A stretch of 45,369 nucleotides of DNA. Source: a virus (taxonomy: Duplodnaviria > Heunggongvirae > Uroviricota > Caudoviricetes). Under the pieces are notes generated by a model that saw only the letters and a list, made by a program, of their open reading frames with translations, was not told the origin of the DNA and did not search any database. Below are positions 1-44,993 of this stretch, one piece after another (position 1 is the stretch's first letter; every line of letters begins with the position of its first letter). The position numbers and the translations under genes are program-made. The stretch lies in the IMG/VR virus record IMGVR_UViG_2684622541_000015. One strand, 5' to 3'.

Positions 1-573
1 ATGTTTTGCGAAGAAAAAGTAGCTCAAATGGCTGCATACCTACTTCTTAAGCGAGGTGGGCGCATGGCATATCTGAAATTGATGAAGCTGCTCTATCTGT
101 CTAACCGCAAGTCGATTTTGAAGCATGGCAGGATGATCGGCGAAGATAGCCTTTACTCTATGAAATTTGGTCCAGTCATGTCGAATACGCTGAACTTGAT
201 TCGTGGTAAGGCTGAAGGTATTGGTGACTACTGGTACAACCTGATAGAGACGAACGGGCATGATGTGTTGTTGCGTTCAGATCCGAGGGAAATGGATGCA
301 GACGAGGTCTTTGATGAGTTGAGCCGTGCAGATATCCGGATTTTAGATGAAATCTATTCTCTGTATGGGCATATGAACCGATTTGATCTCGCAAACATGA
401 CGCATTTAGAAAGCGTTTGTCCAGAGTGGCACAATCCTGGCAATTCTCGTAAGCCTATAGACCTGAAAGAAATGCTGATCAGTGAGGGTAAAAGCGAGGA
501 TGAGGCTAATCGTATAATTGGCAAAATGGAAGAATCTCAGAAACTTAAGGAATTTTCTTTGCAATTATCATGA
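1..573 (+). CDS. Panacea-domain (DUF4065/GepA-like) protein, putative antitoxin; N-terminus may be cut by the window edge
   Basis: ORF starts at base 1. Motif KLMKLLYLSNRK...KFGPVMSN matches the hKLxKLLYxx...GPV signature I recall for Panacea/COG3600 proteins. Stop overlaps next ORF start (ATGA). Confidence 0.55.
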   Translation: MFCEEKVAQMAAYLLLKRGGRMAYLKLMKLLYLSNRKSILKHGRMIGEDSLYSMKFGPVMSNTLNLIRGKAEGIGDYWYNLIETNGHDVLLRSDPREMDADEVFDELSRADIRILDEIYSLYGHMNRFDLANMTHLESVCPEWHNPGNSRKPIDLKEMLISEGKSEDEANRIIGKMEESQKLKEFSLQLS

Positions 574-989
574 CGGATTATCAGCCATACAGGAAAGGAA
601 CTGTGCTTGCCCCAACTGGGCCATGCAATCATCTTCATGTGATTTGTAATGATCCTGTTTATTACCCCGTTAACGATTGTTATTGTGTTTTAGTTGTTAA
701 TATTTCTAGTATCAAGGATGGTGTCCCCCACGATCCGTCTTGCGTCTTGAATTCTGGTGATCATCGCTTTATCAAGCATCCAAGTTATGTTGTTTACGCT
801 GAAGCTATAATTTGGCGAGTGGATAACATGGTTAGAAAGCAGCGATCGGGTGAGATTTCCGTTCATGATGATATGCCAGAAGCTACATTCAATAGAATTC
901 TGGACGGTTTTGATATATCTGATGAAGTTACGCCAAAGAACCTTAAATTTAAAAATAAATATTGCGTATCATCTATTGATGATGAGTAA
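570..989 (+). CDS. hypothetical protein; candidate toxin partner of the upstream Panacea protein
   Basis: 139-aa ORF whose ATG overlaps the upstream stop by 4 bp (translational coupling). No motif recognised; Cys/His-rich N-terminal half. Confidence 0.45.
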   Translation: MTDYQPYRKGTVLAPTGPCNHLHVICNDPVYYPVNDCYCVLVVNISSIKDGVPHDPSCVLNSGDHRFIKHPSYVVYAEAIIWRVDNMVRKQRSGEISVHDDMPEATFNRILDGFDISDEVTPKNLKFKNKYCVSSIDDE

Positions 990-1028
990 ACAACAGGAAT
1001 TGTTTCGGTATAGCTTCTGGAGTTTTCT

Positions 1029-1202
1029 ATGGAAGATCAAAAAGCAACCAAGCCACAGGTTAAGTTCGACACAATGAAAGCATTCGCAGGTATGGGTGCT
1101 GCTGTTGAAGTTCTGATGAAGGCTGCTCCTAATGCGTTCACTCACGCTACTGTCTCTGGTAAAGAGCAGCAGGGTAAGCTTCGTCGTCGCAAAGCAGCAT
1201 GA
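1029..1202 (+). CDS. small hypothetical protein (57 aa), below the ORF-track size cutoff
   Basis: ATG at 1029 preceded by GGAG with 6-nt spacer; ORF ends 20 nt before a strong hairpin terminator. No homology recognised. Confidence 0.25.
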   Translation: MEDQKATKPQVKFDTMKAFAGMGAAVEVLMKAAPNAFTHATVSGKEQQGKLRRRKAA

Positions 1203-1220
1203 TCATAGCTGGTGCTTTTT

Positions 1221-1248
1221 GAAAACCCGCCTTTAGGCGGGTTTTTTC
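1221..1248. terminator. bidirectional intrinsic terminator between convergent genes
   Basis: Hairpin CCCGCC-TTTA-GGCGGG flanked by an A-run upstream and a T-run downstream; sits between plus-strand ORFs and the minus-strand gene ending at 1250. Confidence 0.6.
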
Positions 1249-1249
1249 T

Positions 1250-1531
1250 TTAGTGATGTTCTTTGCCCTTCTGTTTGCCTGTTCTGACCTGTTCCCACTC
1301 GATACGTCCTTCTTCTCGTCTTTTGTCTATGTATTCCGCAAGATCCTGAATATTGATGCAACGTTTTGCTTTTTGTGATGTACCGATGCGATATGTAGGT
1401 ACAGGCAACTTACAAGCGTTTGCTTTTGCTTCTGCTGTGGCTGGACTCATACCAAAGTATTTTTGACTAACTGCTGAGAGTTCAATGTTTGGGGTATTGA
1501 ATTCAGCCATCAGTAAAAACAAGGTATTCAT
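1250..1531 (-). CDS. PrtN-like / excisionase-like small DNA-binding protein
   Basis: 93-aa ORF; N-terminus MNTLFLLMAEF resembles what I recall of the PrtN pyocin-activator/excisionase-like family. GGAG 7 nt upstream of the ATG. Confidence 0.5.
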   Translation of the reverse strand: MNTLFLLMAEFNTPNIELSAVSQKYFGMSPATAEAKANACKLPVPTYRIGTSQKAKRCINIQDLAEYIDKRREEGRIEWEQVRTGKQKGKEHH

Positions 1532-1567
1532 ATCATTTCTCCATCATAACCGGCTGCACCCGGTGAG

Positions 1568-2362
1568 TTACTTATTCATTTCAATAATATTATTTTCTAT
1601 CATTGATTTATTTAAAACCAAAGAAGGAGCAAGATGGTTGTCTATTTTAAACAATGCATAACTTTTAAACTGTTGGTGATATCCGTAACTAATAAGGATG
1701 CTAGAAAAATCTCTTAATTCATCTTCTTTTAAAAAATTAAAATGAAATGGGTTGTCACCATTTATGAACAATGAAACATCTATTATGCAGTATTTCTCTC
1801 CGTTGTCATTTGCATAGAAAAAAATATAAGACATTCTGTTTGTTAAGACAATGCCATTAAATTTTCTTATGTCTGTAGCTATTTTGTTTTCCATGTTTGG
1901 TGCTACATATTTATTTTCAGAAATACATTTAATTTCATCTCCAGATGTCGTGATTATATAAAAATGAAACTTATCAGAAATATCTAACTTAACTACGCCA
2001 TCATTATTGTAAAGGCTGCTAAATTTTGGTGGTTCAACTTTTAAAGAATCATAGTTCTTTAAAAGAAGAGGGGAGTCAAATTTAATAACTTGTAGTATCC
2101 CTTTACCTTCAACCTCCATATTGATTGAAGATATAGCAATTGCATTATCTCTTTTATTATTCAGGATTATGGTTGATATATGCATGTCATATATTCTACT
2201 TGCATTTGCTGAATACGACACTGTCACCTTTTTTGATATTTTTTGCACGCCAAAATATATAGTGAAGGCAGCGGCAAGAATAGATAAGAATTTAATGTCA
2301 AATAAGGACCATAGCCACATTAGTTGCTCAATTGCTTCAGAGTTAATCATTTGCTTTACCAT
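1568..2362 (-). CDS. AT-rich membrane-anchored hypothetical protein (early-region moron)
   Basis: Long ORF in visibly AT-rich DNA. One N-terminal hydrophobic helix (LMWLWSLFDIKFLSILAAAFTIYFGV) followed by a ~220-aa domain with no recognised motif. Start uncertain: ORF-track start at 2401 is TTG; in-frame ATGs at 2362 and 2350. Confidence 0.55.
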   Translation of the reverse strand: MVKQMINSEAIEQLMWLWSLFDIKFLSILAAAFTIYFGVQKISKKVTVSYSANASRIYDMHISTIILNNKRDNAIAISSINMEVEGKGILQVIKFDSPLLLKNYDSLKVEPPKFSSLYNNDGVVKLDISDKFHFYIITTSGDEIKCISENKYVAPNMENKIATDIRKFNGIVLTNRMSYIFFYANDNGEKYCIIDVSLFINGDNPFHFNFLKEDELRDFSSILISYGYHQQFKSYALFKIDNHLAPSLVLNKSMIENNIIEMNK

Positions 2363-2538
2363 TATCGCTGTAATACAACACATGTGTGTATATATACGCA
2401 ATGCAATTATTTTGCAAGTGCTTCATTTACTATCAATAGCTACGTCACGTTATTGTTTAATGGTTCTTTATAGGGGCGGCAATAGTTAAAATTATCGCTT
2501 CCGTAAATGCCCCCGCAGGGGCATTTGCAGTAATGAAA

Positions 2539-40338: not shown

Positions 40339-41709
40339 CTATGATATCCCTGAAATGTCCTCTTCAAGCTCTTTTACTGATTTCGCAATTTTAAATTTAA
40401 ATTTTCTCTCTATTTCACTATTGCTAAGTTTTTTTTCATTCTCTTTCCCTATCCACATAGAAACAATTTCTCGTTTCTGAGATATATGTAGATTGTCAAA
40501 GTTAGGTATGTATTTAAAAGTCTCCGCTCTACCCCTGCGGAGTTCATAGAAAGTTTTAATCAAAGACTTTGGTTTTATTTCTGATGAAAGGCCGAATCGG
40601 CGGATAAGATTATTGATCGTATGATTAACAGCTCGAAGTTGAGCTGTTGACGTTATTTGTGAGAAGTACGATACCCATCCCAATCGTTTACCTTCAAACA
40701 CACATCCCGTAATTCTAAGATTTAGTTTCCACTGACAATATGCAACAGCTCGTTCTTTATCGCGCTTATTTTTAGCTTGTAGTAGAGCGTGTCTATATGC
40801 AGTAAAAATTTTTGCTAAGGATGACTCAAATCTAAGAATGCTCTCATGTTTTATCAATAATTCTCGATTTTTTATGTGGTAGCCCAAAAAGTTGAAACTT
40901 TCATCCAAGCTGCCTACTTTGGATTTTGAGTTCTCTTCATTTAATGGATGTGGGTTTAAATTTAATGATTGAAGCTTATCAATGATATGAGAAGCTATTT
41001 TTGTTGCTTGATATTTTGGTGTTAAAATAAGAATGTCATCAACGTATCGCATGTACCATATGTCATGCATTTTATTGATTTCATCATCGAAATTAGATAG
41101 TGATATTTCAGCTAAAATGTTTGATATCGCTAATCCCTGAGGTACTCCTCTGGTATTATTAGGGATACCTTTGCTTCCTGTGGTTCCACTTACAGTAGGC
41201 ACGATTAATGATGATGTTATTAACTGTCTAATTTCTTTTTTTCTAATTTTATTTTTTATTGCATTAATTATCAATTTATGTTCAATTGAAGGATAGAAAC
41301 TTTTAAGATCTATTTTTGCATATTCAGCATATAGACTGTTGTTTAATGCTTCTTTCAATGAGTCAATTACTGTATGTGGTAGTTTTAATCTGGACTTAGG
41401 ATATATTTCCGTAAGGCATTCACAGAGAGCTCTAAGAGTAATTCTGTCCCTAGCAGTTGGTATGGAAATCTGTCTGGGTGTAGAGTTAGCGCCTTTAGAT
41501 ATTAATTTTTCTTTATATGCTGTAAATTTGTAATTGCCAGAATTAACCTTTTCAAAAATGAAAGTGATCTCATTTTTTATTGTCAAATCAAGTTTTGATG
41601 GGCGAATCCGATCTATGCCAATCGCTCCTGATTCTTTGATTTTTTCAGAGTATACTTTTAGAAGATTTTTTTTCGAGAATGACTTTTTAAAAATTCTGCT
41701 TGCAGTCAT
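40339..41709 (-). CDS. reverse transcriptase (retron/Abi/UG-like; family unassigned) with ~150-aa C-terminal extension
   Basis: RT motifs read directly: KIDLKSFYPSI (motif A-like), RGVPQGLAISNILAEISL (motif B-like), YMRYVDDILIL (YxDD), FNFLGYHI (motif E-like). AT-rich. First ATG at 41709; track start 41715 is TTG. 5' end overlaps the upstream membrane-protein gene by ~23 nt. Confidence 0.75.
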   Translation of the reverse strand: MTASRIFKKSFSKKNLLKVYSEKIKESGAIGIDRIRPSKLDLTIKNEITFIFEKVNSGNYKFTAYKEKLISKGANSTPRQISIPTARDRITLRALCECLTEIYPKSRLKLPHTVIDSLKEALNNSLYAEYAKIDLKSFYPSIEHKLIINAIKNKIRKKEIRQLITSSLIVPTVSGTTGSKGIPNNTRGVPQGLAISNILAEISLSNFDDEINKMHDIWYMRYVDDILILTPKYQATKIASHIIDKLQSLNLNPHPLNEENSKSKVGSLDESFNFLGYHIKNRELLIKHESILRFESSLAKIFTAYRHALLQAKNKRDKERAVAYCQWKLNLRITGCVFEGKRLGWVSYFSQITSTAQLRAVNHTINNLIRRFGLSSEIKPKSLIKTFYELRRGRAETFKYIPNFDNLHISQKREIVSMWIGKENEKKLSNSEIERKFKFKIAKSVKELEEDISGIS

Positions 41710-42238
41710 AGTCAATCCAAAGATATATTAATGGGAGTATATAAAGTGCGGCAGTAATAAATATTCGAAGTAATATCCATAAAATAACAATTATTTTTTC
41801 TTTTTGTGTGGGGATCCTCGTCTTAAGTCCAACTTGAGTTACCCTTGAAATTTTATCATCTATGTCACGGTGATTCTCAACCTCATTGAGCAAATTAAAA
41901 TATTTTTCTTTCTGTTCAAGAGATAACTGTTGACTGGTGGTAATGTCAAAATAGAGTCGCTGTAGTGCAATATAATTCCTTCTCATGGCTATTGCTCGAC
42001 CACGAAAATCTAGGTTAGATACGATCAGAGAAATACCCAGTAGAGCCACTGAAAGTATCGCCGCAACGACATCTGTATTATCTCCTAGAACCTTTGGAAA
42101 TCGCAACGTTACAATTGAAAGTACCGCACTCAATATAGCATACCAAACGAGGATAAATTGAGAGTGTTTTTCAAGCCATTCTAGTCGATGGTGCGCTTGG
42201 ATACGTGCTTTATATGTAAACCAAATATTGTCATGCAT
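41687..42238 (-). CDS. small multi-pass membrane protein, candidate effector partner of the RT
   Basis: 183 aa with three hydrophobic segments (FILVWYAILSAVLSIVTL; VVAAILSVALLGISLIVS; IIVILWILLRIFITAALYILPLIYLWI) and a ~60-aa central soluble region. AT-rich; RBS AAAAAGGA before the ATG. Confidence 0.55.
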   Translation of the reverse strand: MHDNIWFTYKARIQAHHRLEWLEKHSQFILVWYAILSAVLSIVTLRFPKVLGDNTDVVAAILSVALLGISLIVSNLDFRGRAIAMRRNYIALQRLYFDITTSQQLSLEQKEKYFNLLNEVENHRDIDDKISRVTQVGLKTRIPTQKEKIIVILWILLRIFITAALYILPLIYLWIDYDCKQNF

Positions 42239-42769: not shown

Positions 42770-43867
42770 TCAAGAGGTCTTATTTCTGCTCCTTTGGAGT
42801 TCTTCAAAACGATTATGTAAAGATTTCGGATACAGTTCGGTATATACCTGCCATAGCACGTTTAATGAACGATGCCCTGTAACCTGAGCGACTTCCTCAA
42901 TACTAAAACCAGCCTCAAATAAGCGACTTGCCCCTTCTCTACGCAAATCATGGTATCTCAGATCTTTAATACCTAATTTGCTTCTTACCCTCTGAAATCC
43001 TGCGGTAACAGAAGTGCTGTTATATGGAAAAATGAATTCTGATTTTTTGGGTTGTCGCTGGACGATATCCCAGGCTTCCCCAAGCAAGGCAACTTTCATA
43101 TGGTTGCCTTCCTTTTTACGTGGATCTTTCCTGTCTCTTACTAGTATAGATTTTTGTTCCTGGTCGAGATCTTCCCATCGTAACCGGCATACTTCTCCGA
43201 TTCGCATACAGGACCACACAGAAAATTTGAGGATATCAACGAACGGAATTTTTGAGCATTTATGAGTAGATCGTTGTTGAAGGCCTTCAATGAGCATGTT
43301 CAGTTCATCAGATGCTGGTCTACGATTACGACGGTTTGATTTACCAATCAAACCGAGTTTAAGTAGATATGGACGAGCGCTTTTCGCCGGGTTTGATGTG
43401 TAATTGATTCCGTATACAGGTTTTGCCGCATCCAGAACACTGCCAAGATAACTAACATCGTGGCTGACTGTTGCTGGGCCTGCACCAGCGTTGTTTCTTA
43501 GCCTGCAATGTTCAATTACGTCATTTTCTGTCAGTTCAGATAGTTTGATCGCGGAGATGTCACTATCCATAAGCAGTTCCAGCACATATCTTTTAGTACG
43601 GCCTGCTTTACCTCCGGCATTTGGGTCATTTAAATATTTGTGTAGTAAGTCACGGACTGTAAGTCCGTCAACAGCATTTGATGATGGAATGCCATATAGA
43701 TCTAATTCCATCACTTTCTGTGCGCCCCATGTTTTGGCATGAGCATGTTTAGGGAATGTTTTGCTTTCCCTGTAAGTGATAACACCTTTTTCTTTGATAA
43801 TCACATTACAGCGATAGCGTGGTGTGCCATCGGATTTTAGTCGTTTCTCTATGTTATAGTACGCCAT
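42770..43867 (-). CDS. int: tyrosine recombinase / phage integrase, divergent from dusA
   Basis: 365 aa; C-terminal catalytic region (…HDLRREGASRLFEAG…VTGHRSLNVLWQVYTELYP) consistent with the tyrosine recombinase R-H-R-Y family; start lies 88 bp from the dusA start on the opposite strand. Confidence 0.85.
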   Translation of the reverse strand: MAYYNIEKRLKSDGTPRYRCNVIIKEKGVITYRESKTFPKHAHAKTWGAQKVMELDLYGIPSSNAVDGLTVRDLLHKYLNDPNAGGKAGRTKRYVLELLMDSDISAIKLSELTENDVIEHCRLRNNAGAGPATVSHDVSYLGSVLDAAKPVYGINYTSNPAKSARPYLLKLGLIGKSNRRNRRPASDELNMLIEGLQQRSTHKCSKIPFVDILKFSVWSCMRIGEVCRLRWEDLDQEQKSILVRDRKDPRKKEGNHMKVALLGEAWDIVQRQPKKSEFIFPYNSTSVTAGFQRVRSKLGIKDLRYHDLRREGASRLFEAGFSIEEVAQVTGHRSLNVLWQVYTELYPKSLHNRFEELQRSRNKTS

Positions 43868-43955: not shown

Positions 43956-44993
43956 ATGCACGATAATCCTGAAACACAGAAAACTAATCAAACCAGCGTG
44001 ATGCCTGAAAAAACTGGCGCTTACTGGAGTTCTCGGTTTAGCATTGCTCCTATGCTCGACTGGACGGACAGACATTGCCGCTATTTCTTGCGTCTGCTTT
44101 CCCGCAATACGTTGCTGTATACCGAAATGGTGACCACAGGGGCGATTATTCACGGTAAAGGTGATTACCTGGCGTACAGTGAAGAAGAACATCCGGTAGC
44201 GTTGCAACTCGGCGGTAGCGATCCGGCGGCGCTGGCACAGTGTGCGAAGCTGGCAGAAGCGCGTGGATATGATGAGATCAACCTGAATGTCGGCTGCCCG
44301 TCTGACCGGGTGCAGAACGGCATGTTTGGTGCGTGTCTGATGGGTAATGCGCAGCTGGTTGCCGACTGCGTGAAAGCGATGCGCGATGTGGTGTCGATTC
44401 CAGTGACGGTGAAAACGCGTATTGGCATCGATGACCAGGACAGCTATGAATTTCTCTGCGATTTCATCAACACCGTTTCCGGCAAAGGCGAGTGTGAGAT
44501 GTTTATCATCCACGCACGTAAAGCCTGGCTTTCGGGGTTAAGCCCGAAAGAAAACCGTGAAATCCCGCCACTCGATTATCCGCGTGTGTATCAACTGAAG
44601 CGTGACTTTCCGCATCTGACAATGTCGATTAACGGTGGTATCAAGTCGCTGGAAGAGGCCAAAGCACACCTGCAACATATGGATGGCGTGATGGTCGGGC
44701 GCGAGGCGTATCAGAATCCGGGTATTCTGGCGGCGGTAGACCGGGAGATCTTTGGTTCCTCGGATACCGATGCCGATCCGGTGGCGGTAGTGCGCGCCAT
44801 GTATCCGTACATTGAGCGTGAACTCAGCCAGGGGACGTATCTCGGCCATATTACCCGGCATATGTTGGGCTTGTTCCAGGGTATTCCTGGCGCGCGGCAG
44901 TGGCGGCGTTATTTAAGTGAAAATGCCCATAAAGCGGGTGCAGACATTAATGTGCTGGAACACGCGCTCAAACTGGTGGCGGATAAGCGTTAA
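43956..44993 (+). CDS. dusA: tRNA-dihydrouridine synthase A
   Basis: 345 aa; matches my recollection of E. coli DusA over nearly the full length (…[14 protein letters not shown]…[14 protein letters not shown]…[10 protein letters not shown]…). Confidence 0.9.

Follow-up and report, generated by a model that had tools for sequence, protein, structure and literature searches.

A candidate PanAT toxin-antitoxin pair with a predicted MazF-like toxin at the attL end of a dusA-integrated prophage of Escherichia coli

A candidate PanAT module in a lambdoid prophage

The DNA analysed here (the window) is the whole 45,369-nucleotide stretch of IMG/VR record IMGVR_UViG_2684622541_000015, which corresponds to one entire lambdoid prophage of Escherichia coli integrated in dusA. 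On the plus strand, its first 989 positions contain two overlapping open reading frames (ORFs): panA (1..573), coding for a complete antitoxin candidate of 190 aa, and panT (570..989), coding for a 139-aa toxin candidate of PanT cluster T6 with a predicted MazF/Kid/CcdB-like fold and extra C-terminal helices. By analogy with a characterised homologue, positions 1..989 likely represent a two-gene type II toxin-antitoxin (TA) module of the PanAT kind, with the antitoxin first, carried as low-GC cargo at attL, in which a MazF/Kid-like PanT would inhibit translation. The domain identity of PanA, the predicted fold of PanT, the homology to a validated pair, the strict pairing of both genes and the overlap between them are the observations on which this assignment is built.

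The panA product (RefSeq WP_000458583.1) shows the sequences KLMKLLYL at residues 26–33 and GPV at residues 57–59, by which an earlier model-made annotation, prepared without database searches (the sequence-only reading), had recognised a Panacea protein. This was confirmed by the Pfam profile SocA_Panacea (PF13274), which matched residues 27–137 above its gathering score, with 67.9 bits (cut-off 25.7) and an E value of 1.8e-18. PanA is made up of a standalone Panacea domain and a C-terminal extension of about 50 aa, within which the conservation profile revealed a conserved EW.DP..S..PI motif at residues 142–153. Some metagenomic PanA partners are longer (350 aa in locus L040, 131..1183; 244 aa in locus L042, 754..1488), and these carry an N-terminal extension before the Panacea domain.

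The ATG of panT shares the panA stop codon TGA in an ATGA overlap (570..573, plus strand), just as had been read from the sequence. No Shine-Dalgarno (SD) sequence precedes ATG 570, which together with the overlap implies coupling by termination and reinitiation, in agreement with the tight or translational coupling proposed earlier. RefSeq/PGAP places the start of this second gene further downstream, at GTG 603, giving a protein of 128 aa (WP_014640052.1). Residues encoded ahead of GTG 603 (P6, Y7, R8, K9, G10, and T11, within the segment MT.YQPYRKGT that forms residues 1–11) were conserved in an alignment of 32 homologues, G10 being invariant, so that ATG 570 is the correct start. The SD-like sequence AGGAAAGGAA ahead of GTG 603 corresponds to the coding sequence of the conserved RKG. 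PGAP systematically calls the T6 family short: many Pseudomonas WP_ entries have 108 aa instead of 132 aa, thus lacking the conserved first beta-strand. For annotation, the start of WP_014640052.1 should be moved from GTG 603 to ATG 570, and the name PanT T6 MazF-fold toxin candidate can be given to this hypothetical protein, which about 190 complete E. coli genomes encode.

Pairing of panA and panT across relatives

A PanA homologue was found directly upstream of the PanT homologue, on the same strand, in all 30 loci with usable upstream DNA. The loci considered were 26 from a genome collection (Gamma-, Beta-, and Alphaproteobacteria), those of the phages and the window itself; a 277-bp contig, an edge-cut locus, and an N-masked locus were left out of the count. 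In total, the 30 loci span Gamma-, Beta-, and Alphaproteobacteria, Campylobacterota, and four phage types. Five phages other than that of the window have a Panacea gene directly before the homologue: Yersinia phage YeP1, a Vibrio Vinavirales element, the P2-like Pseudomonas phage Sirocco, a Klebsiella phage, and a Helicobacter prophage. The same arrangement was shown by five out of five distant metagenomic representatives (around 30% identity) and by a Pseudomonas locus, so the pairing held overall in 35 of 35 related loci, belonging to four bacterial classes and several phage types. Regarding the junctions, 17 of 29 overlapped by four nucleotides (ATGA) or by one (TAATG), and the others with a readable start had gaps of 1 to 27 nt. 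Pairwise identities of PanA and PanT co-varied (Pearson r 0.87, 325 pairs), which shows co-inheritance, the loci being phylogenetically related and the statistic thus not independent. A Pluralibacter homologue is about 87% identical to the window PanT.

The genes flanking the pair differed with the context (integrase, LexA-like repressor, portal, terminase, and metabolic genes) and a 57-aa ORF that follows the pair in the window was not conserved with it; therefore, the pair does not form part of a conserved operon of more than three genes. Terminase or portal genes adjoin the pair in the Helicobacter prophage (L007, 1870..4828) and in Sirocco (L005, 929..3388).

Lesions were detected at two loci. 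In that of a Bathymodiolus symbiont (L033, 3045..3330), the toxin homologue is frameshifted and PanA is intact, and in an Acerihabitans locus (L014, 2994..3031), the toxin ATG lies out of frame at a T6C4 homopolymer run; both could reflect either decay of the toxin or sequencing errors. No locus combined an intact PanT with a broken PanA, the toxin gene being the broken one in L033 and possibly in L014. Decay in which the toxin gene is broken and the antitoxin gene intact is a pattern typical of TA pairs.

Assignment to PanT cluster T6 and likeness to known systems

Kurata et al. 2022 (PNAS, PMC8832971) defined PanA/PanT and 88 toxin clusters. In the part of their Dataset S1 covered here, cluster T6 is labelled "EndoA/PemK/MazF-family RNAses" on the basis of HHpred, its rows include Pantoea septica LMG 5345, Yersiniaceae bacterium 2016Iso4, Proteus vulgaris FDAARGOS_556, Pluralibacter gergoviae, and Halomonas spp., among others, and its pairs have the antitoxin-toxin order with spacings mostly of -4 or -1 (PMC8832971). 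Two of our loci come from strains listed there, L013 from P. septica LMG 5345 and L012 from 2016Iso4, and the window PanT is 56% identical to the P. septica LMG 5345 protein and 55% identical to that of 2016-Iso4 (homologue P0035 is identical to the L013 protein). Within this same part of the supplements, the accessions WP_000458583 and WP_014640052 were not found. The comparison with known PanT families that the sequence-only reading had suggested thus places the protein, which that reading considered a possible undescribed toxin, in cluster T6 as covered in those supplements, a cluster predicted as MazF/PemK-like and with one validated member.

The validated T6 protein is the PanT of Pseudomonas moraviensis LMG 24280, which was toxic in E. 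coli, was neutralised by its PanA, co-purified with it, and specifically inhibited the incorporation of 35S-Met, that is, protein synthesis; neither ClpXP nor Lon was needed for neutralisation by PanA (PMC8832971). The window PanT showed 43% identity over 120 aa (E 6e-34) to P. moraviensis SDU72800.1 (132 aa), which, judging from strain, neighbour, and spacing, would be the same gene as WP_083201923.1, the toxin of the WP_083354365.1/WP_083201923.1 pair. Close Pseudomonas relatives within the same 90% cluster as SDU72800.1 have a 1-nt overlap with the upstream Panacea gene, as in the table of Kurata et al. It is from this homologue that toxicity, neutralisation, complex formation, and translation specificity would be extended, by analogy, to the E. 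coli pair.

Both pairs share the antitoxin-first order, overlapping start and stop codons, and a PanA devoid of any extra N-terminal domain with the N-terminal motif M.F.E.KVAQ (the window PanA starts with MFCEEKVAQ, and Kurata et al. restored a MIFSEQKVAQ start to the P. moraviensis protein; PMC8832971). Their toxins are also alike in size (132 versus 139 aa), in the retention of H21, H23, D55, C58, and H65, and in lacking any Pfam or CDD match while appearing MazF/PemK-like by remote methods. In contrast, the P. moraviensis pair is chromosomal and not located in a prophage, whereas the window pair constitutes the first genes of a dusA-integrated lambdoid prophage; the overlap is of 1 nt in the former and 4 nt in the latter, and the toxins differ at C26, G63, and D64.

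Compared with MazEF and Kid-Kis (PemIK), the window PanT shows only 8–16% identity and no match to profile PF02452, has a very short beta1-beta2 loop and extra C-terminal helices, and conserves a His/Asp/Cys/His set instead of Arg/Thr. The antitoxins differ as well, PanA being a globular Panacea protein with no evident DNA-binding domain, whereas MazE and Kis are of the AbrB or ribbon-helix-helix type with a disordered tail. The founding DUF4065 system, the type VI TA system SocAB of Caulobacter crescentus, has an antitoxin with the same Panacea/DUF4065 domain. SocA serves as an adaptor of ClpXP, to which it hands over the DnaN-binding toxin SocB to be degraded. The window PanA scored only 13.5 bits against the SocA equivalog profile NCBIfam NF047745 (cut-off 190), and its partner is unrelated to SocB, with a predicted MazF-like fold.

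Predicted fold and conserved residues of PanT

Searches with the panT product, both as a single sequence and as a profile, found no significant match in Pfam, NCBIfam, PADLOC, or the PDB sequences, in line with the earlier remark that it has no recognisable motif; matches to ICMT, DapC, and IgG were discarded as noise, and the protein is not a structural phage protein. The structure prediction that had been proposed as a check produced a confident MazF-like barrel: the AlphaFold2 model, built from the 32-sequence alignment, reached a predicted local distance difference test (pLDDT) score of 93.6 and a predicted template modelling (pTM) score of 0.87, with a beta-barrel followed by helices. The 50 best Foldseek matches of this model in the PDB were all MazF-family endoribonucleases, nearly all of them named MazF, and the predicted model thus has the SH3-like barrel of the CcdB/MazF superfamily. 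PDB entries of MazF were not found with the profile hidden Markov model of the PanT family, and the proposed link to MazF comes from the predicted fold together with the HHpred statement of Kurata et al.

The family is large, as an exhaustive profile search recovered 2,731 cluster representatives (50% identity clusters) at E <= 1e-3, and it has neither a Pfam model nor a solved structure. Among 91 diverse members, H21 was invariant and L22, D55, C58, G63, H65, F67, S72, Y76, G113, and S117 were at least 90% conserved; the window protein retains all the family-conserved residues. In E. coli MazF, the catalytic residues are R29 and T52. By strand register, H21 would occupy the position of R29, and S46/S47 (serine or threonine in the family) that of T52. 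From this conservation pattern, the active site of PanT would probably be formed by H21, D55, C58, and H65 and not by the canonical Arg/Thr. These conserved H/D/C/H residues are reminiscent of the ligands that bind a metal.

Position of the pair within the prophage

Several complete E. coli chromosomes carry the first 1,600 bases of the window with 100% identity, and 193 of 5,426 complete genomes contain at least 80% of this segment. Strain A14, with an identical locus, gave access to the DNA upstream of position 1. There, panA is annotated with exactly the start of the window (WP_000458583.1), an SD sequence TGAGG lies 9 nt 5' of it, and the 253 bp upstream of panA end at a truncated 5' dusA fragment, which marks attL. 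The integrase gene of the related phage Lys8385Vzw, in its circular form, is located on the other side of attP. Consequently, nothing is lost at the window edge: panA truly begins at position 1 and has no upstream partner, so the concern that the edge might have removed the N-terminus of PanA or a further gene can be put aside.

Downstream of the pair, a basic 57-aa ORF (1029..1202, plus strand; pI 10.2) is preceded, as the earlier annotation had it, by a ribosome-binding site, here GGAG 7 nt before the ATG, and matches phrog_2741 over its full length (E 8e-36). The anticipated strong terminator was also present (1221..1246, plus strand), with an 11-bp stem (6 G-C), a 4-nt loop, and a T-run; its predicted folding energy is -23 kcal/mol (z = -3.53), and 0 of 200 shuffled sequences folded as well. 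This terminator closes the plus-strand unit, between convergent transcription units, since the xis gene, coding for a PrtN-family excisionase (1250..1531, minus strand), ends at position 1250; the convergence with minus-strand phage genes noted by the sequence-only reading is therefore real. The three ORFs panA, panT, and the 57-aa one each have many homologues and so are not chance reading frames.

The 57-aa ORF is probably co-transcribed with the pair. It is, nevertheless, a gene of the phage backbone and not a TA component: phage mEp460 shares positions 1016..1563 of the window (57-aa ORF plus xis) at 95% identity and has no panA/panT pair, and the ORF is absent 3' of the pair in YeP1, Sirocco, and the Klebsiella, Vibrio, and Helicobacter phages. 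GC content is 41.3% in the panA/panT module, compared with 49.6% in the whole window and 48% in the 57-aa ORF. This contrast, the presence of an unrelated gene in the same slot of mEp460, and the fact that the 57-aa ORF never follows the pair elsewhere indicate that the pair is a moron inserted in a variable slot between attP and the phage backbone. The proposal of a Panacea-type TA-like pair carried as prophage cargo was upheld.

Proposed mechanism and alternatives

According to the scheme that we favour, transcription would start upstream of the window, pass the 57-aa ORF, and stop at the terminator. PanA would be made first, and would bind the MazF-fold toxin directly and keep it inactive. 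As panT has no ribosome-binding site of its own and its start lies inside the panA stop, PanT would be made only by ribosomes just finishing panA, and this coupled translation would hold the toxin at or below the level of the antitoxin. Free PanT would most likely stop growth by inhibiting translation, probably as an endoribonuclease that cleaves RNA with an active site probably formed by the conserved His/Asp/Cys/His set. The parts of this scheme that we infer are the RNase chemistry and the residues behind it, the surface through which PanA neutralises the toxin, and the function of the module in the lysogen, which might be to defend by abortive infection or to stabilise the prophage. Direct neutralisation of a toxin by a standalone Panacea domain has been shown, and a sensor role has been proposed for this domain (Ernits et al. 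2023, PMC10440598); the papers covered here report no defence phenotype for PanAT pairs. A bolder version, to which we give rather little credit, is that His21/Asp55/Cys58/His65 of the T6 family form a different, possibly metal-dependent centre with a new substrate and a non-MazF chemistry, PanA being a sensor that would release the toxin on infection as an abortive-infection defence.

Several results weigh against the scheme. The MazF profile PF02452 had no match at E <= 0.1 in the window protein or in any of the 91 family members, and hhalign of the PanT family alignments against MazF/Kid sequences (E. coli MazF, and a five-sequence MazF/Kid/EndoA/ChpBK alignment) gave probabilities below 1%. 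The catalytic Arg of MazF is not evidently conserved. In addition, the panT product is acidic (pI 5.6, net charge -5), a feature unusual for an RNA-binding toxin and likewise for an RNase of the MazF type. Upstream of panA, in the A14 locus, no promoter above shuffled expectation was detected, the number of sigma-70-like sites being below that expectation, with a single 9-of-12 site 127 nt 5' of panA, and no inverted or direct, operator-like repeats were present. No match at E <= 1 was obtained in PADLOC-DB v2 for PanA, PanT, or the 57-aa ORF, which leaves a defence role unsupported. Finally, the toxicity of the E. coli pair is taken from its homologue, and other PanA-linked candidates, those of E. 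coli and phage Emek in cluster T1, were non-toxic.

This last point also speaks for the alternative that survives best, which we nonetheless consider improbable: the two genes would form a conserved phage module but no TA system in E. coli, with a second protein that is harmless and acts together with PanA in another phage function, such as anti-defence or packaging-related regulation. Several PanA-adjacent candidates proved non-toxic, including the T1 pairs of E. coli MOD1 (WP_077635758.1) and Salmonella phage Emek (YP_006560566.1) (PMC8832971, Table S1). These resemble the window pair in being an enterobacterial or phage Panacea gene followed by an overlapping small ORF, predicted in their case as "mRNase". 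However, comparison with the phage Emek pair ruled out that the window PanT belongs to cluster T1, as the partner families are unrelated (hhalign probability 0.07) and the PanA proteins only 25% identical; moreover, the window PanT is 43% identical to a T6 member shown to be toxic and neutralised, and keeps all the residues conserved in that family. A phage function would also suit the acidic character of the protein, the location of the pair beside terminase or portal genes in Sirocco and the Helicobacter prophage, and the label "terminase" carried by some T6 members. Among the RefSeq records covered here, several Pasteurellaceae T6 proteins bear this name without any domain support, and it is probably a propagated misannotation. 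Furthermore, in Pseudomonas the pair is also found in a chromosomal setting that is not that of a phage, which makes a phage-specific function unlikely.

That PanT could be a CcdB-like gyrase poison instead of a translation inhibitor is suggested by the fold, which CcdB shares, and seems very unlikely: MazF and Kid structures scored higher, all the top Foldseek matches were MazF-family endoribonucleases, and the P. moraviensis homologue inhibits protein synthesis specifically and not DNA synthesis (PMC8832971). Slightly less credible still is a three-gene system with the 57-aa ORF as the real toxin or an essential third component. Its location on the same strand before the shared terminator, its own ribosome-binding site, and its basic C-terminal tail would fit, as the sequence-only reading had contemplated, but mEp460 keeps it together with the excisionase gene and has an unrelated gene in place of the pair, none of the other phages and genomes examined has it 3' of the pair, and its GC content fits the phage backbone and not the module. 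Equally slight are the prospects of PanA being a solo anti-defence or sensor gene with an incidental neighbour, an option raised earlier and consistent with about half of the Panacea genes surveyed by Kurata et al. lying outside detectable TA-like loci (PMC8832971), given that the partner was present in 35 of 35 loci with reading frames overlapping or nearly abutting, and that PanA and PanT diverge in step.

Returning to the PanAT assignment, the family, its gene architecture, the fold prediction, and a validated example had all been published in 2022; the locus matters little for discovery, and its practical value lies in annotation. What novelty is left concerns the chemistry and biology of the whole T6 family and not this locus in particular.

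Other genes of the prophage

At the opposite end of the window, the integrase gene (42770..43867, minus strand) is followed by the restored dusA gene (43956..44993). Beside dinI and int, at the attR end (40339..42238, minus strand), a UG17 reverse transcriptase gene (PADLOC RT_UG17, E 1e-158; Pfam RVT_1) overlaps a SLATT gene (SLATT_5/reverse transcriptase-associated SLATT, E 1.5e-56). These two genes constitute a defence pair of the DRT (defence-associated reverse transcriptase) type, so that cargo is present at both ends of the prophage: PanAT at attL, and the UG17 reverse transcriptase with SLATT at attR.

In mEp460, the slot of the pair is occupied by gp23 (1784..2317), an unrelated gene coding for 177 aa with no Pfam or PADLOC match, which may be another uncharacterised cargo gene. 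Finally, just after xis in the window lies an ORF at 1568..2401 (minus strand), for which the ORF list gives 277 aa and RefSeq 260 aa. Its sole match is phrog_14996, of unknown function (E 3e-178), with none among the Pfam families; the corresponding position in Lys8385Vzw is taken by different genes, an exonuclease among them.

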